Below are positions 42,082 through 63,223 of a DNA stretch of 64,000 nucleotides, one piece after another. The stretch is from an uncultured virus (IMG/VR IMGVR_UViG_2684622652_000002) (taxonomy: Duplodnaviria; Heunggongvirae; Uroviricota; Caudoviricetes), in the IMG/VR virus record IMGVR_UViG_2684622652_000002; one strand, written 5' to 3'. The notes below the pieces were generated by a model. It made no database searches, was not told the origin of the DNA, and was given only the letters and a program-made list of their open reading frames with translations. Within the stretch, counting starts at the first letter, position 1. Every line of letters begins with the position of its first letter. Both the position numbers and the translations under genes were made by a program.

Positions 42082-43269
42082 GTGACCTGGGACGAGCACA
42101 AAGCGAATTTTGCCAGGCTGGCGCGCGATGGTGGCTATACCATCGCTCAGTACGCCGCCGAGTTTAATCTGAACCCCAATACAGCCCGCCGGTATCTACG
42201 CGCATTTAAGGATAGCGGCACAGGCCCGGACGGCATTAAGCCAAATAAGCCGGTGCGGGCGCCTGCCAACAAGTCAAGGAATGATCAAAAAAGCGATCAA
42301 AATAAATGTGATCACTCTTTTGATAAAAGACATTCAAAACAGAAAGATAGCAGCGTGATCAGGGGCGCGCTGGCGCAAGCCCGCGCCCAAAAGCAGAAAC
42401 TTGATGATCGATTGAGTGATCATGAGGTGATCACCCGCGCCAAGAGATCACTCAAGGACAAGCTGGAACGTGATCGGCTTACTGATGACGGAGAACGCTT
42501 TGAGTTTGAACCTGCTGACTACCAGATAGACAACCATGAAGCCCGCCGGGAAGCGAGAGCTATGTTGCGACGTTCCGGCGCCGATGCGCTTGAAGCGGCC
42601 TTGCTGGAGAAAACGCTGTCACATCTCCTTATGCTGGAGAACGCTCGCGACGTTTGTATCCAGTTGGTACATCAGATCCAGGCCGATAAGAAAGACGATG
42701 ACACCCCTGTAGAGTACCGCATTGCCAGCATGTTGAATAACTGCACCGCGCAAATCAGCAGCCTGGTGAACACTATATTCACTATCCGTAATAACTACCG
42801 GAAAGAGAACCGCGAAGCCGAGAAACATGCACAAACAATGGGGCAGACTGGCATTGTGCAGCTGGCGTACCAGCGACGCCGGGAACTTGGCTGGAATGCA
42901 CAGGAAACTGCCGAATTTATCGAATCACAGGGAGGTAAAGTACCCCCGTTGTTGATGGAGAAGATCCGCGCCGAGTTGCGTAACCCCAAACCAGAAACGC
43001 CAGACCCAGCCGAACAAACCGCTACCGGCACCCCATCTCTTGCAGATCTCGACAGAGAGGCCCGCGAGCGGGCCGCCAGCCGCCGCATTGATTCTTCATT
43101 ATGGATTGAGCAACGAAGGGAAGAAATCGCCGATATCGTTGATACAGGCGGCTATGGTGATGTTGATGCTGATGGCATATCAAATGACCCGTGGATGGAA
43201 CAGGATTTAGACGAAGACGAGGAGGAGGACGAGGAAGTAACCCGTAAACTGTACGGAGATGATGACTGA
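42082..43269 (+). CDS. pacA: Terminase small subunit
   Basis: [28 protein letters not shown]; acidic tail. Confidence 0.92.
42282..42476. other. pac site: cluster of Dam-methylatable TGATCA/G-type hexamers inside pacA
   Basis: GATC hexamers at 42282, 42294, 42309, 42356, 42405, 42417, 42428, 42445 and 42471. Confidence 0.82.
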
Positions 43270-44753
43270 TGGCCCGCAGTTGTATAACGGACCCTCGCTG
43301 GCGAGAGCTGGTGGCGCAATATCGTTATGACTGGATAGCCGCCGCCGATGTTATGTTCGGGAAAACCCCCACCTGGCAGCAGGACCAGATCATTGAGTCT
43401 GCGCAGGAGCCTGGCAGCAAAACGTCTGTATCGTCTGGTCACGGTACGGGTAAGTCGGATATGACCTCTATCATGATCATACTCTTCATCATCATGTTCC
43501 CCGGCGCCCGTGCAATCATCGTTGCGAACAAGATACAGCAGGTTATGACCGGGATCTTTAAGTACCTGAAGATTAACTGGTCCACAGCCACCAGCAGATT
43601 CCCCTGGTTGGCCGAGTATTTTGTACTAACCGATACCTCGTTCTATGAAATTACCAGTAAAGGCGTCTGGACTGTTGTACCGAAAGGTTTTCGCCTGGGC
43701 AATGAGGAAGCGCTGGCTGGTGAACACGCCGACCATCTCCTCTACATTATCGATGAAGCATCCGGTGTGAGTGATAAGGCGTTCGGGATTATGACGGGCG
43801 CTCTTACCGGCAAAGATAACCGCATTCTTTTGCTTTCTCAGCCAACACGTCCCAGCGGATATTTCTACGATACGCACCATAAACTGGCCAAGCGGCCTGG
43901 GAACCCTAACGGCATCTATACGGCCATTACGCTAAATAGCGAAGAATCGCCGCTTGTAACGCCAGAGTTCATTAAGATGAAACTGGCGGAATACGGCGGC
44001 CGCGATAGCCCGATGTATCTGATCAAGGTTCGTGGTCTGTTCCCGAAAACTCAGGATGGCTTCCTGCTGGGCAGTGATGAGGTTGAGCGCGCCTCGCGTC
44101 GTAAGGTGAAGATAGCTAAAGGCTGGGGCTGGATCGCGTGTGTGGACGTCGCTGGTGGCACAGGGCGCGATAAATCAGTTATCAACATAATGATGGTATC
44201 TGGCGAGCGTAATAAGCGTCGTATCATTGGTTATCGCATCATTGAGTATTCTGATGTTACAGAGACACAACTGGCCGCCAAAATTAACGCGGAATGCAGT
44301 CCTGATCGTTATCCAAACATTACGATAGTGATTGACGGCGATGGACTGGGGAAATCTACCGCAGATTTGTTGTACGACAATTATGGAATCACTGCGCAGC
44401 GCATTCGTTGGGGCAAAAAAATGCACAGTCGGGAGGACCGCAGCCTTTACTTTGATCAGCGCGCCTATGCAAACGTACAGGCCGCAGAAGCGGTCAAATC
44501 AGGACGTATGCGACTGGATAAGGGCGATGCAACTATTGAGGAGGCCTCTAAGATCCCGGTAGGGATTAATTCAGCCGGCCAATGGAAAGTAATGAGTAAA
44601 GAGGATATGAAAAAGAAACTCAACCTGCGTTCCCCTGACCATTGGGATACCTATTGTTTCGGAATGCTGGCAAACTATGTACCCCAAAACGAAGTGCTCA
44701 GTGTTGAGGATGAGGCGCAGGTTGATGAGGCGCTGGCATGGCTTAATGAATAA
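43269..44753 (+). CDS. pacB: Terminase large subunit
   Basis: Walker A SGHGTGKS, Walker B IIDEA, nuclease DVAGG; 494 aa. Confidence 0.95.
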
Positions 44754-44779: not shown

Positions 44780-45631
44780 TTATTTAGAACTTTCGGGATT
44801 ATCATTCACTGGTGATCCCTTTTTAGTATTACGGGTACGGGTTGTTGATGCCGCAGACAGAGCTTTTTTATCCTCCCGGATGCGAGCAAGATTACCTTTA
44901 ACATCTTCTATGTCTTTTAATCTGTAAATCTTGGCCTGTGGCCAGCGGTCACAAATAATAGGCTCAATTGAATCATATAAGCTGAATTTTTCTTTCTCAA
45001 ATTCTGGGCCAATGGACAAGCCATCCCTCAATGTCTCATCACAGATAAACACCCCGCATAACGGGACATGGTAAGGGACGGACTTACCGCCGTTGTAGTT
45101 GGGGCTGGTGGAAATGTAATGCACACGCAACATCGTTTCGTTGAAGCCGTGAATACGCATTCTGAATTTTTCTTCGTCAGGGAATTTTTCCATCAACCTT
45201 TTTGTGCGCTCCAGATTACCTATATAGCGCCTACTCCACTCGGTTATATCGCCGGCCTTCTGAATACGTATATCTTTATCCAGCAAATGAATAATTCGTT
45301 TTGCTGTCATATTCACGCTATTTATGGCTTCAGTCTGGTAAGTGGTGGCTTTCCTTACCCCACGTAAAATATTAGGGACGGGATAAAGGATTGTTCTGGG
45401 AACGTTTAAATCCGGGTATTGTTCCAGCTCTTTGGCCATAGCCGTCCATTTGTCTATATCCGCCTGAATACGGTCCGTTTCTTTGAACGGTAATACCACT
45501 ACAGGACGAACAAAACGCCCGTCGCTGGCTTTGTCGACGTGTTGAGCGCGGGCAACGGCATTGGCAAGAAAGAGATCCCTAAATTTGACGAACTCCCTGT
45601 ACAATTGCTCGCCATAAACATAATTGACCAT
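44780..45631 (-). CDS. c1: Primary repressor C1
   Basis: MVNYVYGEQLYREFV start; 283 aa like P1 C1. Confidence 0.95.
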   Translation of the reverse strand: MVNYVYGEQLYREFVKFRDLFLANAVARAQHVDKASDGRFVRPVVVLPFKETDRIQADIDKWTAMAKELEQYPDLNVPRTILYPVPNILRGVRKATTYQTEAINSVNMTAKRIIHLLDKDIRIQKAGDITEWSRRYIGNLERTKRLMEKFPDEEKFRMRIHGFNETMLRVHYISTSPNYNGGKSVPYHVPLCGVFICDETLRDGLSIGPEFEKEKFSLYDSIEPIICDRWPQAKIYRLKDIEDVKGNLARIREDKKALSAASTTRTRNTKKGSPVNDNPESSK

Positions 45632-45723
45632 AGAGGCTCCTCCGAAATGTATACGAGTCACACCCCCGGCTCACGTTTGCTGGGGGTGCATACACCATTA
45701 TAAGAGGATTGTTTAAAAAAAAT

Positions 45724-45740
45724 AGATTTATTAGAGCACT
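45724..45740 (-). promoter_or_regulatory. C1 operator upstream of c1
   Basis: Minus strand AGTGCTCTAATAAATCT. Confidence 0.78.
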
Positions 45741-45949
45741 TAGGAGGATTCTGTGAGGATCAGATAGATTAAATAATCTACAGAGTCAATGAGATCAAGC
45801 ACTTCATCAACAGTGACCCTATGCTCTTGATTGGAGAGCTTTAGATGGTGTTCGGTAACGGCGCGCGCAGCGTCTGGAGAGGTAAGATCGAGAGACAATT
45901 CGTTAGAATAATTCTTAACGTCGTCTACGGTGGGAGCGATAAAAGCCAT
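45740..45949 (-). CDS. coi: C1 inactivator Coi
   Basis: 69-aa acidic protein; MAFIAPTVDDV...DAARAVTEH like P1 Coi. Confidence 0.88.
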   Translation of the reverse strand: MAFIAPTVDDVKNYSNELSLDLTSPDAARAVTEHHLKLSNQEHRVTVDEVLDLIDSVDYLIYLILTESS

Positions 45950-46200
45950 CTGTTTTTCCCTACTAAAGTCGCACTACACAGAGCACCAAAATGGTACGCC
46001 ATGATTTTCCAAGGGGTTTACTCAGCCTTCCCGTACAACCAGTACCGTGGACTACGCGGCGCGCGCTACCTCGTTTGCCCTTCTGACCCCATTAACAAAA
46101 AGGCGCGTGTGACGGCGGCAAAGTTAACGGAAGACTTCTTCTAACTGCTATTGCTGTCAGTGTCATGGCGACCGCCTTCCGAACTGAAACAGCAACAGAT

Positions 46201-46326
46201 ATTGTGGCGCCGGGATTTGAACCCGGATAACGTCTAACCAGCCGCATGAGATAATCAGGTAACGATCCCTGAATTCCCCACCTCCCCAGACAAGGGGCGC
46301 TCTCCCCAATTGAGCTACACCACAAC
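46201..46326 (-). ncRNA. tRNA-like RNA with an expanded variable region; no canonical anticodon arm, no CCA
   Basis: Acceptor TGTGGTG/CGCCACA; D arm GCTC-AATTGGGGA-GAGC; T arm CCGGG-TTCAAAT-CCCGG; about 57 nt inserted. Confidence 0.7.
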
Positions 46327-46412
46327 GGTGAGAGCACTGATACGGAGGACTGCGTGCCTCCGGATCGACTTGCGGCTTGTGTGCATGCCCGCTCATCGCC
46401 AATGCTCTTACC
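46327..46412 (-). ncRNA. Stem-loop module with conserved GGTAAGAGCATTG / CAGTGCTCT arms
   Basis: Same arms as the modules at 62448-62530 and 62901-62972. Confidence 0.6.
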
Positions 46413-46473
46413 GTTATAGCCAGTATCAAGCGCCACACCATTACTGGTGTTGAGCGAGTCCATTTTCGGACGA

Positions 46474-46502
46474 AAGCTATAATTTATTAGAACAATTGTC
46501 AA
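46474..46502 (-). promoter_or_regulatory. C1-controlled promoter for the ncRNA cassette and coi
   Basis: Minus strand TTGACA-17-TAGCTT with operator ATTGTTCTAATAAATTA (46480-46496) in the spacer. Confidence 0.75.
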
Positions 46503-46563
46503 ATAATGACAACATTTGGCAGGCCTCTTTCTGACCCAAAGCACATAAACATCACTTTTCAAT

Positions 46564-46580
46564 ATTGCTCTAATAATTTT
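46564..46580 (+). promoter_or_regulatory. C1 operator
   Basis: ATTGCTCTAATAATTTT. Confidence 0.8.
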
Positions 46581-46623
46581 AATTGATTTAAACAAGCTTC
46601 AGAGATTACACTAAAAGCATCAG

Positions 46624-46657
46624 ATAACTTCGTATAACACACATTATACGAAGTTAT
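46624..46657. other. lox recombination site with variant spacer
   Basis: ATAACTTCGTATA-ACACACAT-TATACGAAGTTAT; arms identical to loxP. Confidence 0.97.
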
Positions 46658-46685
46658 TGATAACCTCCTTGAACATGATCAATAA

Positions 46686-46705
46686 TACTGTAAATCCATA
46701 CAGGG
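46686..46705 (+). promoter_or_regulatory. LexA (SOS) box downstream of lox
   Basis: TACTGTAAATCCATACAGGG (CTG-N10-CAG), with three TGATCA sites nearby. Confidence 0.72.
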
Positions 46706-46844
46706 TAAAGACTTGGGAGGACAAAATGTGATCACTTAGAACGTTGATCACTGGTGCGCTACGTAAAATCTGCCGGGGAAACCATCGCGAGATGCCCCAG
46801 AATTCACGTAGCGCAAGGGAAAAACCAATCAATCAGGCAACCAC

Positions 46845-47051
46845 ATGATGGACAAGCAAAAACGTAAAGAGATTCTTCAAATAGCCGTTGATTCACTCCG
46901 CGCTGCGGAATACGTACTCGGCCAGCTCGCTGACTCATACACCGAAGAACGCGACGGTAAATTCAGCGCCTGTCACCCCAAAAGCTCTTTTGAATCGTCT
47001 TTAGGACAAGTAACCCGTCTGCGTAAATCACTGGTGAAAGCCAAAGTCTAA
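46845..47051 (+). CDS. Hypothetical protein (68 aa)
   Basis: ORF after a hairpin and CCAATCAATC leader. Confidence 0.6.
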   Translation: MMDKQKRKEILQIAVDSLRAAEYVLGQLADSYTEERDGKFSACHPKSSFESSLGQVTRLRKSLVKAKV

Positions 47052-48384: not shown

Positions 48385-49413
48385 ATGACCAATTCGTTAA
48401 CCGTTCATCAAAATTTACCGGCGTTACCTGTTGAGTCTGTCAACGAAGAGGTTCGTCGAAACCTGAATGCGATGTTCCGTGATAAAGAGGCGTTTTCCGA
48501 ACACACCTGGAAAATGCTGATGTCAGTTTGCCGTTCATGGGCTGAATGGTGTTCGGTTAACGGCTATACCTGGTTCCCGGCACACCCGGAAAATGTGCGT
48601 GACTATTTACTCGGATTGCAGGCGCGCGGACTGGCGGTTAAGTCGATAGAGCAACATATTGCTCAACTGAACATGCTGCATAAACGATCTGGCTTGCCAC
48701 GCCCAAGCGACAGTATGGCCGTCTCCCTTGTTATGCGCCGGATACGAAAGGAAAACGTGGATGCCGGCGAGCGGGCTAAACAGGCGCTAGCATTTGAGCG
48801 CCGGGATTTTCAAACGGTCCGCTCTCTCCTCATAGAAAGTGAGCGTATCATTGATATTCGCAACCTGGCATTCCTGGGGCTGGCATATAACACCCTGTTA
48901 CGCATAGCCGAAATTACCCGCATCCGCGTTAAAGATATTTCGCGTACCGAAGGTGGGCGAATGCTGATCCGCATTGGACGGACAAAAACGCTTGTCAGCA
49001 CCGCCGGTATAGAGAAAGCGCTAAGCCTTGATGTAACGTATCTGGTAGACCGATGGATCACGGCCTCCGGCGTAGGAGAAGACCCGGATAATTACCTGTT
49101 CTGCCGCGTACGTAAAAATGGCGTAGCAGTCCCATCATCCACCAGCAAACTGACAACGCGATCGCTGGAACATATCTTCGAGGCAGCACACTACAAAGTT
49201 TATGGTGCAAAAGATGCATCCGGCGAACGCTATCTGGCGTGGTCAGGGCACAGTGCCCGTGTAGGCGCTGCGCGTGACATGGCCCGCGCCGGTGTTGGCG
49301 TGCCGGAAATTATGCAAGCTGGTGGCTGGACTAACGTCGAAATAGTTATGAGCTATATCCGTAATCTGGACAGTGAAACAGGCGCTATGGTCCGCCTGCT
49401 GGAGGAAACCTAA
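48385..49413 (+). CDS. cre: Cre tyrosine recombinase
   Basis: MTNSLTVHQNLPALPV, YNTLLRIAEI, WSGHSARVGAARDM, MSYIRNLDSETGAM. Confidence 0.98.
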   Translation: MTNSLTVHQNLPALPVESVNEEVRRNLNAMFRDKEAFSEHTWKMLMSVCRSWAEWCSVNGYTWFPAHPENVRDYLLGLQARGLAVKSIEQHIAQLNMLHKRSGLPRPSDSMAVSLVMRRIRKENVDAGERAKQALAFERRDFQTVRSLLIESERIIDIRNLAFLGLAYNTLLRIAEITRIRVKDISRTEGGRMLIRIGRTKTLVSTAGIEKALSLDVTYLVDRWITASGVGEDPDNYLFCRVRKNGVAVPSSTSKLTTRSLEHIFEAAHYKVYGAKDASGERYLAWSGHSARVGAARDMARAGVGVPEIMQAGGWTNVEIVMSYIRNLDSETGAMVRLLEET

Positions 49414-60461: not shown

Positions 60462-60758
60462 TCAGGCCTCTATAAAGGTTTTCTCGCCATTAGCCCAACC
60501 ATCATCATAATCCACTTCGCCAGCGCGAATCATAGTTGCATGAGGTAGTACATCGCTCCAGTTCATGTTGTTCTCGGCCCAATCTTCGATCTCGTAAGGG
60601 TCGCTCTGAAAAAGAGGAAGCGTGTATTTCTCCAGGCTTTCTTCAAGCGTAATTCCATGTTCTTTGGCATAATATGCTGCGCAGTTATTGGCTATTACAT
60701 CAGTAGGAACCTGCCATACGCTATTGTCCGGCATTGTGACGTTCATAAACTTTTTCAT
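60462..60758 (-). CDS. Acidic hypothetical protein coupled to ban
   Basis: Start overlaps the ban stop. Confidence 0.7.
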   Translation of the reverse strand: MKKFMNVTMPDNSVWQVPTDVIANNCAAYYAKEHGITLEESLEKYTLPLFQSDPYEIEDWAENNMNWSDVLPHATMIRAGEVDYDDGWANGEKTFIEA

Positions 60759-62116
60759 TAATCATCCTCGTTCCAGTTCTGGCCAGCGTAGTTATCAAAT
60801 CGTGAATACTGGCCGTTGAAAGTAAGTCGCACGGTCCCGATTGGCCCGTTACGTTGCTTACCGATAATCACTTCTGCAATACCTCTAAGATCCGAGTTTT
60901 CGTGGTAAACCTCATCGCGGTACAGGAACATGATGAGGTCAGCATCCTGTTCGATAGCGCCGGATTCACGTAGGTCGGAATTCACCGGGCGCTTATCTGC
61001 GCGTTGTTCCAGTGAACGGTTAAGTTGTGACAGTGCCACTACCGGCACCTGAAGCTCCTTCGCCAGCGCTTTCAGCGAGCGGGAAATTTCAGCGATTTCC
61101 AGTGTGCGGTTTTCCTTTAATTCCGGAACTCGCATCAATTGAAGGTAATCGACCATAATCATGCTAAGTCCGCCGTTCTCCCGGTAGACACGGCGCGCGC
61201 GGGAACGTAGTTCGGTAGGCGTCAGCCCACTGGAGTCATCAATAAAAATATTTCGGTTATCCAGCAAAATGCTCATGGCGCCGGAAATTTTCGCCCAGTC
61301 TTCATCGCCAAGCTGGCCGGTACGAATACGGGTCTGGTCCACGCGGGATAGTGATGCCAGCGATCTCATCATTAACTGATCGCTGGGCATTTCCAGGCTA
61401 AACACCAGCGCTGGTTTATCGCTATTTATGGCGGCATTCTCCACCAGGTTCATAGCAAACGTGGTTTTCCCCATAGAGGGGCGTGCGGCCACAATGATTA
61501 GATCTGATGGCTGAAGGCCTGCCGTCTTTTTATTGAGGTCTGTAAACCCCGTGTCCAGACCGGTTACGCCATCGTGTGGACGCTGAAACAGCTCTTCTAT
61601 GCGCGCAACTGTGGAATCCAGAATGCTGGTAATATCCTTCGGCCCTGCATCGGCTTTCTGGCGCTTTTCTGCGATGCCGAACACCAGCCGCTCGGCCATA
61701 TCCAAAAGTTCTTCGCTACTTCTTCCATTTGGCGAATAGCCCGCATCAGCGATCTGGTTTGATATGCTGATCAGCTCACGAACAACAGCTCGCTCACGAA
61801 CAATGTCCGCATACGCACAGATGTTTGCAGCGCTGGGTGTGTTTTTAGAAAGCTCCGCGAGGTAAGCAAATCCCCCAACGCGATCCAGTGCCCCCTGTCT
61901 TTCGAGTGATTCAGACAGTGTAATCAGATCAATAGGGCTACCGTTTTCCTGCAATCGCCCCATTTCTATAAAAATCTGTCGATGTGGACGAGGATAGAAG
62001 TCATCAGCAACAACGCGTTCGGCAACATCGTCCCAGCGACCGTTATCCAACATAAGACCGCCCAGAACTGCCTGTTCCGCCTCAATAGAATGCGGTGGCG
62101 ATTTAATTTCACCCAT
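60758..62116 (-). CDS. ban: Replicative DNA helicase (DnaB analogue)
   Basis: PPHSIEAEQAVLGGL, AARPSMGKT, VDYLQLM, DLRESGAIEQDAD. Confidence 0.97.
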   Translation of the reverse strand: MGEIKSPPHSIEAEQAVLGGLMLDNGRWDDVAERVVADDFYPRPHRQIFIEMGRLQENGSPIDLITLSESLERQGALDRVGGFAYLAELSKNTPSAANICAYADIVRERAVVRELISISNQIADAGYSPNGRSSEELLDMAERLVFGIAEKRQKADAGPKDITSILDSTVARIEELFQRPHDGVTGLDTGFTDLNKKTAGLQPSDLIIVAARPSMGKTTFAMNLVENAAINSDKPALVFSLEMPSDQLMMRSLASLSRVDQTRIRTGQLGDEDWAKISGAMSILLDNRNIFIDDSSGLTPTELRSRARRVYRENGGLSMIMVDYLQLMRVPELKENRTLEIAEISRSLKALAKELQVPVVALSQLNRSLEQRADKRPVNSDLRESGAIEQDADLIMFLYRDEVYHENSDLRGIAEVIIGKQRNGPIGTVRLTFNGQYSRFDNYAGQNWNEDD

Positions 62117-62160: not shown

Positions 62161-62289
62161 TCAATTTTTCTTGACATTAGACTTGGGGCGCTTGCTTGCT
62201 TTGATTAGCCCTTCTATGCCGGAAAAGACAACCAACAAGAGCACAATGGTAAAGACTGGATGGTCAAATATGAGTTGTAGAATTTGCAT
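62161..62289 (-). CDS. Small single-pass membrane protein (42 aa)
   Basis: MQILQLIFDHPVFTIVLLLVVFSG plus basic tail; downstream of the ncRNA array. Confidence 0.5.
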   Translation of the reverse strand: MQILQLIFDHPVFTIVLLLVVFSGIEGLIKASKRPKSNVKKN

Positions 62290-62321
62290 GGTAATCCCAG
62301 GTGCATCCGAGTGTGGAAAAT

Positions 62322-62447
62322 GTTGTGGTGCCGGGTGCCTCCCGGTGTCCTTTGGCTGGTTAGCCACCGTGGACGGGGAAAAAATTTTTAAAGGAGAACA
62401 AACTACTAACCATTTCCCCGCGTGCGCTTAGCCGCATTCACCACAAC
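62322..62447 (-). ncRNA. C4-antisense-like cloverleaf RNA (unit A)
   Basis: Terminal stem GTTGTGGTG/CACCACAAC; arms TGCGGCTAAGCGCA and CCGGG-AGGCA-CCCGG. Confidence 0.75.
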
Positions 62448-62770
62448 GGAAAGAGCACTGTATCGTTTGTATTCCCTCCCTGTTGACAATCACCAATGGG
62501 TCCGACGTCAACGTATCAATGCTCTTACCTGTTGTGTGCCGGTTACGTATCCGGCGAGGGCTTCCACCTCCGTATGCTTTTCGGCACTTCGTGCCCTGGC
62601 TACATAACGGCAAGGGCATTGCCCCATCGTTCAGACCGACATGTCCCCCTCTCGGCTGCAACAAGTCAACGCCCTTGCAGTTATGTGCCGGTTACGGTTC
62701 CGGCCAGGCCTCTTCCTCAACGGGGTATTCTCCATTCGGACTACCGTTTGTTGGTCGTTCCTGCGGTTAA
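62448..62770 (-). ncRNA. Alternating stem-loop and mini-cloverleaf RNA modules (units B-E)
   Basis: B and D have long variable loops between GGTAAGAGCATTG/CAGTGCTCTTTCC-type arms; C and E share GCCGGAnnCGTAACCGGCACAYAAC 3' ends. Confidence 0.65.
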
Positions 62771-62900
62771 GTTGTAGTGGCCGGTGCTGATATCCGGCCT
62801 TGGTGGTATTTGCCGCCATACTTTCAGGCGCGTCCCAAGTCTCCAATTTCCACCCATCCGGCTATTACGGGTGCGCATCAGCCTGCGCATTCACTACAAC
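62771..62900 (-). ncRNA. C4-antisense-like cloverleaf RNA (unit F)
   Basis: Terminal stem GTTGTAGTG/CACTACAAC; arms TGCGCAGGCTGATGCGCA and GGCCGGATATCAGCACCGGCC. Confidence 0.75.
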
Positions 62901-63152
62901 GGAAAGAGCATTCCTGCCATGTGCACTCATTCAAGTGGAATGCATAAGGTGGTGTCTGAAATGCTCTTACCTGTTATGTCCTCGTCTCTTCCGAGGTGTC
63001 ACACCTGATCGCCAAGATGGTGAGTCCATGGAACGCCGCTATGCACGGGGCTTGCACATTCCGGCTACCTGGTTTGTTTGCCTGAGCAGAGGGAAAAGAA
63101 ACCCTCTATAACGTCACCAGACCGCTATCGACGCATGTGCCAGACGCCGTGT
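62901..63152 (-). ncRNA. Stem-loop module G and structured leader H
   Basis: G has the same arms as B; H has several hairpins (CCTCGGAAGAGACGAGG, AGAGGG..CCCTCT) and no credible ORF. Confidence 0.55.
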
Positions 63153-63179
63153 TAAAAAATAGTCTCGCTTTACAAAATA

Positions 63180-63223
63180 AAATTTATTAGAGCAATTATA
63201 CTTAAAAAATCAATTAGAACAAT
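63180..63223 (-). promoter_or_regulatory. C1-controlled promoter driving the ncRNA array
   Basis: Perfect operator ATTGCTCTAATAAATTT (63180-63196); second operator 63207-63223; TTGTTC-16-TATAAT. Confidence 0.85.

Follow-up and report, generated by a model that had tools for sequence, protein, structure and literature searches.

The lysis-lysogeny circuit of P1-type phage-plasmids (C1, Coi, Lxc, C4/Ant) is considered well mapped, and the excision of small RNAs from the leaders of antirepressor operons has precedents in the C4 RNAs of P1 and P7, the CI RNA of P4 and the CA RNA of N15, immunity RNAs that act in the lysogen. Stable RNAs of tRNA shape that do not decode are known from phage tRNA clusters (the species 1 and 2 RNAs of T4 and the tRNA-like RNAs of T5), and murine gammaherpesvirus 68 carries cassettes of a tRNA-like unit plus hairpin. 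The case of the N15 CA RNA is reportedly that of Ravin et al. 1999 (cited in PMC4488713). The STnc100/PasD prophage small RNAs (RF02076; bioRxiv 10.64898/2026.05.13.724894) are prophage leader RNAs with a GUUGUG/CACAAC stem and a T-arm-like hairpin. For a D6-like plasmid (PMC6799933), tRNA genes for Asn, Thr, Ser and Met, four in all, have been reported together with two c4-like regions. Here we describe a tRNA-shaped RNA in the leader of coi, the gene of the C1 inactivator, in a D6-type member of the P1-family phage-plasmids (IMG/VR record IMGVR_UViG_2684622652_000002; the whole stretch of 64,000 nucleotides that was analysed is called the window, and coordinates refer to it unless another locus is named). 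Judged from its sequence and that of its relatives, this RNA belongs to an uncatalogued family of six-helix tRNA-derived RNAs located in repressor-controlled phage leaders.

On the minus strand of the window, the order is C1-operated coi promoter, Y-shaped RNA, tRNA-shaped RNA, hairpin 46195-46151, coi and c1 (Table 1). The cloverleaf GTTGTGGTG...CGCCACAAT (46324..46202, minus strand) was the sole match in the 64-kb window to reach an Rfam gathering score (tRNA, RF00005; 41 bits, threshold 29). Its acceptor stem (UGUGGUG/CGCCACA, 7 bp) followed by U8 and A9, its D arm (GCUC-AAUUGGGGA-GAGC, with GG) followed by G26, its T arm (CCGGG-UUCAAAU-CCCGG) and the A at position 73 are canonical, and the nucleotides of the tertiary contacts are present (U8, A14, G18-G19, U54-U55-C56 and A58). 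Between G26 and the T stem, three helices, H1, H2 and H3, stand in place of the anticodon arm and the variable loop: H1 of the window copy reads CCCC-UUGUCU-GGGG, and 57 nt separate it from the T stem. CCA is not encoded, and positions −2/−1 (G, U) are able to pair with 74/73. A first-pass annotation of this DNA had described a cloverleaf with canonical D and T arms, a shrunken anticodon arm (CCCC-TTGTCT-GGGG), an insert of about 57 nt and no CCA; the two arms were borne out by the sequence and by the Rfam tRNA match, and the remaining features all proved correct, the stub being read directly at 46297-46284.

Twenty distinct homologous sequences were obtained by exact-pattern scans of public collections and from public plasmid and phage records, and the structure, comprising 39 pairs, was tested on them against slid controls, in which partners were shifted by 1–3 columns, and against 500 shuffles. 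In a MAFFT alignment of 15 sequences, 97.4% of the cells formed standard pairs versus 37.8–51.6% in the slid controls; a model-fitted alignment of all 20 sequences, which is biased towards the structure but agrees with the MAFFT alignment, gave 97.5% versus 38.0–51.2%. None of the 500 shuffles matched the observed pairing or covariation score. Five pairs (26 cells) of the 20-sequence alignment were changed on both sides, with double changes in H2 (CG, AU, GC and UA types at two pairs), H1 (UA to CG), the D stem (CG to UA) and the acceptor stem (UG to GC). Pairing reached 100% of the cells in the D and T stems, U at −1 and G at −2 were present in all 20 sequences and A73 in 18 of them; mean column identity was 89% across differing phage types, and the core formed by the H2 base and H3 was almost invariant. 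This conservation with covariation across 20 homologues is much stronger evidence than the fold z-scores (−2.0 when the element is folded by itself, −2.7 when the 526-nt leader is), and it indicates that the H1–H3 arms are under selection at the level of RNA pairing. A covariance model of the family, R1, found one copy in the window and separated the family members (122–157 bits) from real tRNAs (only 16–27 bits); it had no match in the P1 locus, in the Klebsiella phage locus or in the array of RNA elements in the leader of ban.

The settings of the RNA were surveyed in 16 viral contigs, 8 metagenome contigs and the record of Cronobacter phage JK004. The coi leaders that contain the type A and B copies are P1-like and have lox and C1 operators ahead of them. 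Copies of types C and D (four longer contexts) belong to an array that closely follows a CI-like repressor gene in the same orientation and heads an operon ending in an integrase gene, the early-left position of lambdoid prophages. A further copy (L070) appears, by eye, to have its own TTGACA-type promoter; one hairpin comes next, then the tRNA-shaped RNA and last a GC-rich hairpin with a T run, so that the unit looks like an independent small-RNA gene. The genes downstream of the tRNA-shaped RNA differ in every lineage and, because other phages have it at the head of quite different operons, it is not a coi-specific device. Counted from the CGGCTGG motif, with the element at about −83..+46, similarity to the window copy extended over −95..+41 (JK004), −94..+55 (L070), −95..+42 (L003) and −94..+42 (L006); in four of four comparisons, homology between lineages began 11–12 nt 5' of the element and stopped at or just past its 3' end, JK004 additionally having the promoter and parts of the distal leader in common with the window. 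These edges define a module that runs from about 12 nt of the preceding stem strand through the acceptor stem and, since homology between lineages is confined to the RNA, the tRNA-shaped RNA is a portable module. The sharp breaks at the module edges, together with basal-stem sequences that are kept across arrays with unrelated interiors, might also suggest a role at the DNA level, in which the module and its stems (CACAAC / GGTAAGAGCAYTG ... CAGTGCTCT / GTTGTG) serve as recombination joints for cassette exchange and the fold is secondary. We consider this very unlikely, as the compensatory changes within the arms reveal selection on RNA pairing and the canonical nucleotides of the tRNA tertiary contacts are retained. 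The family is rare as far as the scans extend: a 17-base pattern searched in one genome per species gave 40 matches, none of them with an adjoining T arm, model R1 gave no match at E<=1e-9 in 151 genomes sampled from the order to which a Rouxiella genome belongs (a weak negative, with 22 candidates scored per genome), and at megablast sensitivity no match in complete E. coli genomes covered the element. JK004 was the only isolated phage found to carry it.

That the Rfam tRNA score exceeds its threshold, and that the H1 loop of the window copy (UUGUCU) is close to the CUUGUAA loop of a P1-like tRNA-Thr, could point to a decoding tRNA of unusual shape or else to a decaying tRNA pseudogene, an explanation that we regard as extremely improbable. 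ARAGORN called no tRNA or tmRNA anywhere in the 64-kb window; run on the window copy and those of nine loci it called none of them, and it did call the neighbouring real tRNAs in L065, L060 and L063. Three of six other copies pass the RF00005 threshold (45.9, 44.5 and 29.5 bits), and those of L001, L063 and L064 fail. A 5-bp anticodon stem with a 7-nt U33 loop after position 26 is absent from all 20 sequences; H1 occupies this place, with a stem of 4–5 bp and a loop of 6 nt in the window type, 4 nt in types B–E (UGAA, AGAU, AAAU) and 3 nt in L070. The variable region, 57 nt with two helices (H2 and H3), exceeds the usual 4–5 nt or single arm of at most about 21 nt. The tip of H2 carries a 7-nt anticodon-like loop (Y/A-U-NNN-A/U-A) in 17 of the 20 distinct copies, reading (A/C/U)UCAU(A/U)A in 16 and UUCGCAA in one, with the triplets CAU and CGC; the loop has 8 nt (GAUCGUUA) in the window lineage (3/20), and the H2 arm, about 10 bp with two internal loops, is about twice as long as a normal anticodon arm. 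Because a normal anticodon loop is missing from the standard position in every copy, the RNA is not a decoding tRNA, and because H1 lacks an anticodon loop even after excision of the 57 nt, it is not a spliced tRNA that could be restored; the column identity of 89% and the compensatory changes exclude a decaying pseudogene. The description of the element as a tRNA-derived scaffold and not a working tRNA was therefore upheld by its canonical core, the stub loop of 3–6 nt in 20 of 20 copies and the covarying extra arms, and the two outcomes that had been named as refuting it failed, the pseudogene on conservation and covariation and the spliced decoder on the missing anticodon loop. Protein coding was considered and rejected as well: open reading frames of 167 and 92 amino acids overlap the RNAs, but these frames are interrupted by 1-nt indels in a relative of 93% identity, and the length of the copies varies from 129 to 133 nt.

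By the membership criteria of each class, the coi-leader element falls outside C4, STnc100, tmRNA and functional tRNAs. With class II tRNAs (RF00005) it shares the 7-bp acceptor stem, U8, the GG of the D arm, the UUC.A of the T arm, A73 and a hairpin, H3, at the site of the long variable arm; it differs from them in one extra helix, a loop of 3–6 nt at the anticodon position, the lack of CCA and the negative ARAGORN result, and the anticodon-like loop, where present, is borne on the arm of about 10 bp with two internal loops. No tmRNA or YrlA-type RNA was listed by ARAGORN or the Rfam models. The C4 family had no match at gathering score in the whole window, and neither C4 nor any other small-RNA family of Rfam matched 45500-47000 at E<=1. 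The grammar of the STnc100/PasD RNAs is shared by the sister elements in the ban leader; the coi-leader element, unlike these, has true D and T arms and no STnc100 match at E<=1, and R1 misses the ban-leader elements. The RNAs of T4, T5 and gammaherpesvirus 68 resemble it as non-decoding tRNA shapes that are co-transcribed with hairpins and real tRNAs and freed by tRNA-processing enzymes, but they differ in sequence family and in setting: here, regulatory genes of temperate enterobacterial phages are preceded by a leader under repressor control. A literature search, with the D6 and P1 genome papers outside its reach, returned no account of this element.

The promoter of the leader had been described as C1-operated, in line with its match to P1: TTGACA-ATTGTTCTAATAAATTA (46502-46480) is near-identical to the annotated −35 hexamer and Oc1d of P1coi, the operator (46496-46480, ATTGTTCTAATAAATTA) differing from Oc1d of P1 (ATTGCTCTAATAAATTA) at one base. 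The list produced by a sigma-70 promoter scan did not include this promoter. In P1, which has the promoter and operator as in the window, the coi start follows the annotated −10 hexamer at a distance of about 230 nt, with the small open reading frames imcA and imcB in the stretch between; neither ARAGORN nor R1 detected a tRNA-like element at this locus. No convincing alignment of the two leaders was obtained beyond the promoter and the coi start and, as the stretch between these is unalignable, our claim is restricted to P1 being without the cassette, which on this comparison is carried by the D6/JK004 lineages and absent from P1. The 421-nt stretch under study was present in five Salmonella plasmids (86–94 kb) with 93–99.8% identity. 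The further hairpin that had been placed at 46150-46196 was confirmed, since 46195-46151 forms in the minimum-energy fold, and its 3' half (CAGCAATAGCAGT) is common to JK004. A lox site lies near 46621-46654, with 13-bp arms of P1 type and the 8-bp spacer ACACACAT; the spacer is ATGTATGC in JK004, a P1 half-site is consistent with GCATACAT, and the lox site of the window may be heterospecific in its spacer. The cre gene is located about 1.7 kb from lox, with three open reading frames between them.

Table 1. Features of the coi locus and its surroundings in the 64,000-nt window.
Feature	Position	Strand	Remarks
tRNA-shaped RNA	46202..46326	-	Rfam tRNA 41 bits; own covariance model 126.8 bits
positions −2/−1	46326-46325	-	
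acceptor, 5' strand	46324-46318	-	
D arm	46315-46299	-	
H1, stub at the anticodon-arm position	46297-46284	-	
H2, long arm with internal loops	46280-46247	-	
H3, hairpin at the class II variable-arm position	46245-46230	-	
T arm	46226-46210	-	
acceptor, 3' strand	46209-46203	-	
A73	46202	-	
Y-shaped RNA	46327..46412	-	13-bp basal stem and two inner hairpins
coi promoter and C1 operator	46473..46502	-	−35 TTGACA 46502-46497; operator 46496-46480; −10 region 46478-46473
second C1 operator-like site, ATTGCTCTAATAATTTT	46564..46580	+	position and orientation as P1 Oc1e
small 5' leader hairpin, CACCAGTAATGGTG	46436..46449	-	in minimum-energy leader fold
hairpin directly 3' of the tRNA-shaped RNA, UUGCUGUUUCAGU...ACUGACAGCAA	46151..46195	-	in minimum-energy leader fold
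remaining coi leader	45950..46150	-	conserved in part with JK004 (+136..+175, +257..+343)
coi (C1 inactivator)	45740..45949	-	56% identity to P1 Coi, E 1e-21
c1 repressor gene	44780..45631	-	79% identity to P1 C1 over 283 amino acids; downstream of coi, same strand
pacA and pacB	42082-44753	+	
cre	48385-49413		
ban, DnaB-type	60758-62116	-	

Upstream of the tRNA-shaped RNA, the first-pass annotation had placed a hairpin. A structured element was indeed found at this place, but it is a three-way Y and not a plain hairpin. Its basal stem is formed by GGTAAGAGCATTG (46412-46400) and CAGTGCTCT..ACC (46339-46327), the whole element being bounded by GGTAAGAGCATTG and CAGTGCTCTCACC (46412-46327), and it can be extended by pairing of AUAAC (46417-46413) with GUUGU (46326-46322). 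A consensus fold of the window sequence and three homologues gave a three-way structure of 27 pairs, four of them with compensatory changes. Homologues of the Y-shaped RNA were found in the P1-like E. coli IncY plasmid NZ_CP123268.1 (L065; 86% identity) and in Klebsiella phages (78% identity), in one case between a CI repressor gene and a partition gene. At L065 2343-2760, tRNA-Asn and tRNA-Thr are followed directly by the Y homologue and then by a small element closed by GUUGUGA...UCACAAC, and the record annotates a 'hypothetical protein' (2515-2727) across these RNAs.

All arrays follow one grammar, in which closed elements start with GUUGUG and end with CACAAC, and each intervening hairpin begins after a CACAAC and stops before a GUUGUG. 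The assertion that the coi leader shares its grammar with an array at 62–63 kb was confirmed: in the ban leader (62.3–63.0 kb), at least two GGTAAGAGCATT... hairpins are each followed by an element closed by GTTGTRGTG...CACYACAAC. One ban-leader element (62445-62324) matched Rfam STnc100 with 39 bits and E 1e-6, short of the threshold of 47. The ban-leader array as a whole (62290-63130, minus strand) is poor in open reading frames, extends over about 0.85 kb and contains several elements closed by GUUGUR.../...CAYYACAAC; a C1 operator-like promoter near 63150-63215 heads it, and a hydrophobic 42-amino-acid open reading frame (62161-62289) lies ahead of ban. Its first element (62985-63100, minus strand; ...CCGGAATGTGCAAGC...GGTGTGACACCTCGGAAGAGACGAGGACATAAC) resembles, by eye, the element (L003 280-560) that lies ahead of the Y hairpin both in the lambdoid leaders of type C and in L002, a Klebsiella phage; this likeness may mark another shared module. 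In some sister arrays (L060 and L063), a genuine tRNA-Arg(UCU) stands after the hairpin that follows the tRNA-shaped RNA; tRNAs and tRNA-shaped RNAs thus adjoin within the same hairpin-separated arrays. These tRNA-Arg(UCU) genes (L060 5076-5154, L063 5103-5179) lie within the early-left leader array, with a terminator after them. In some lambdoid arrays, the hairpin that precedes the tRNA-shaped RNA (L008 500-612, L016 500-612) contains T-arm-like minihelices, e.g. GGCAGGTTCAATTCCTGCCACCA, which look like tRNA 3' halves inside the hairpin module.

We favour, with a probability of roughly 45%, the reading that the element gives rise to a stable tRNA-derived RNA that is released from the derepressed leader by tRNA-processing enzymes. 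The coi-leader module would be transcribed only once C1 repression of the coi promoter lifts, and its tRNA core would be recognised by host enzymes, with RNase P cutting at the 5' side and 3' trimming following, with or without addition of CCA. Cutting would free the upstream Y-shaped RNA, whose 3' end it would define, and the tRNA-shaped RNA as stable small RNAs, while the remaining coi-c1 mRNA would carry a new 5' end capped by the 46195-46151 hairpin; the released RNA would then bind a partner that reads the tRNA shape. An RNase P site, as suggested in the first-pass annotation, is plausible because a 7-bp acceptor stem and a 5-bp T stem, an intact elbow of D and T loops and, in 20 of 20 sequences, U at −1 are present. 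Since the extra arms are conserved far beyond what cutting needs, the released RNA itself is probably the functional product, binding a partner that reads the tRNA shape. The favoured reading also draws on the modular spread, on the genuine tRNAs beside hairpin modules of sister arrays, on the seemingly independent unit of L070 and on the precedent of the C4, CI and CA RNAs. Processing and stability of the product are what we infer from these features, and any effect of the tRNA-shaped RNA on coi from its position. In its mode of working it would be most like the C4/CI/CA leader RNAs and the tRNA-like RNAs of phage tRNA clusters. With the former it shares its place in an antirepressor-gene leader, in a temperate phage or phage-plasmid, and an acceptor-like stem beside a T-arm-like hairpin, an adjacency from which processing by RNase P would be expected; it differs from them in its complete D arm and T loop, in the lack of an Rfam C4 match and of complementarity to a target, and in its promoter, which is repressed in the lysogen, unlike those immunity RNAs.

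Several observations weigh against release by processing. The minimum-energy fold of the 526-nt leader leaves the acceptor stem unformed, since its 5' strand pairs upstream and lengthens the Y stem, with the D arm, H1, H2 and the T arm kept. An acceptor stem with a bulged base, as in types B, C, E and F, and the pairing of −1/−2 with 73/74 could each weaken cleavage by RNase P. No CCA is encoded, and the conservation of H1–H3 shows that cutting alone is not the whole function. Finally, the size-fractionated RNA libraries X1 and X2, the only ones in which the locus was represented, yielded just contigs at 45875-46080 and 46096-46267 with a depth of 2–4 that fit no predicted RNA end and may be DNA carry-over.

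The presumed expression from early promoters under repressor control, in P1-like and lambdoid phages alike, the strict conservation of elbow and core, the selection on the extra arms and the 7-nt anticodon-like H2 loop in 17 of 20 copies (CAU in 16, CGC in one) would also suit a decoy or mimic of tRNA, which early after derepression titrates or misleads a host factor that recognises the tRNA shape. Candidate targets are tRNA-directed defences, anticodon nucleases among them, as well as modification enzymes and synthetases, and processing would be the production route only; the first-pass annotation had likewise named a decoy for tRNA-targeting defence nucleases. We rate both this role and these targets as rather unlikely: the 8-nt H2 loop of the window lineage (3/20) makes the anticodon-like loop inessential, and neither defence nor counter-defence genes recur consistently beside it, the genes that follow varying by lineage. 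Of similarly low probability is a more far-reaching proposal, that the element is the founding example of a six-helix tRNA-derived family whose members act in trans as look-alikes, engage a tRNA-recognising factor and tilt the lysis-lysogeny switch in favour of the phage. Such a look-alike would be made only at derepression, from the first stretch of the early transcript in unrelated temperate enterobacterial phages and would rely on its elbow, its H2/H3 core and its Met-like loop; a defence nuclease, a modification enzyme, a synthetase and the ribosome are the candidate host factors.

An immunity RNA of the C4/CI/CA type, a loop of which pairs within the leader or with a different phage transcript so that termination or a translational block reduces coi expression, would fit the position in the leader of an antirepressor gene, as for C4, CI and CA, and the complementarity of H3 to an STnc100-like loop in the ban leader. 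The 10-mer GGCTGGTTAG of H3 (46243-46234) is exactly complementary to this loop (62363-62354; hairpin GGCUAACCAGCC), 10-mer and complement occurring once each in the window. The 10-mer spans both stem and loop of H3, however, relatives read GGCC or GGCU there, no complementary partner for H3 was found in the loci of relatives, and nothing homologous in sequence to the ban-leader array is present in the JK004 genome. A kissing interaction of H3 with the ban leader was rejected as a single 10-mer match with no counterpart in relatives or JK004. A scan of the window for complements (k=10–12) gave, as the only non-trivial matches at k=12, one 12-mer in cre, which is about the number expected by chance, and copies in the ban leader, which are antisense copies of the shared Y-stem motif at its hairpins (the opposite strand of the locus itself was discounted). 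RNAduplex predictions between the leader elements and the coi start, in the window and in JK004, yielded long, loop-ridden duplexes without a shared site. With no small-RNA family matched around the locus, no intrinsic terminator found in the coi leader by a scan of 45600-46900, and the same RNA preceding unrelated genes in other phages, we consider an immunity RNA decidedly unlikely, though a little less so than a recombination joint. The suggestion that the scaffold might be an antisense carrier gained no support, as no complement of 12 nt or more to a sense transcript of the window was found beyond the one chance-level match and no covarying partner in relatives, and no support was found for an antisense or terminator role on coi.

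A relative of P1 thus carries two conserved structured RNAs before coi, where P1 has only imcA and imcB, and the occurrence of the same RNA in coi leaders and in lambdoid early-left operons suggests a shared, portable function at derepression. Current phage annotation misses the tRNA-shaped module, and in one plasmid an open reading frame has been called over the sister Y RNA. A processed tRNA mimic, if true, would widen the set of uses that phages make of the tRNA shape and would offer a compact, testable case of about 125 nt in a genetically tractable phage family.

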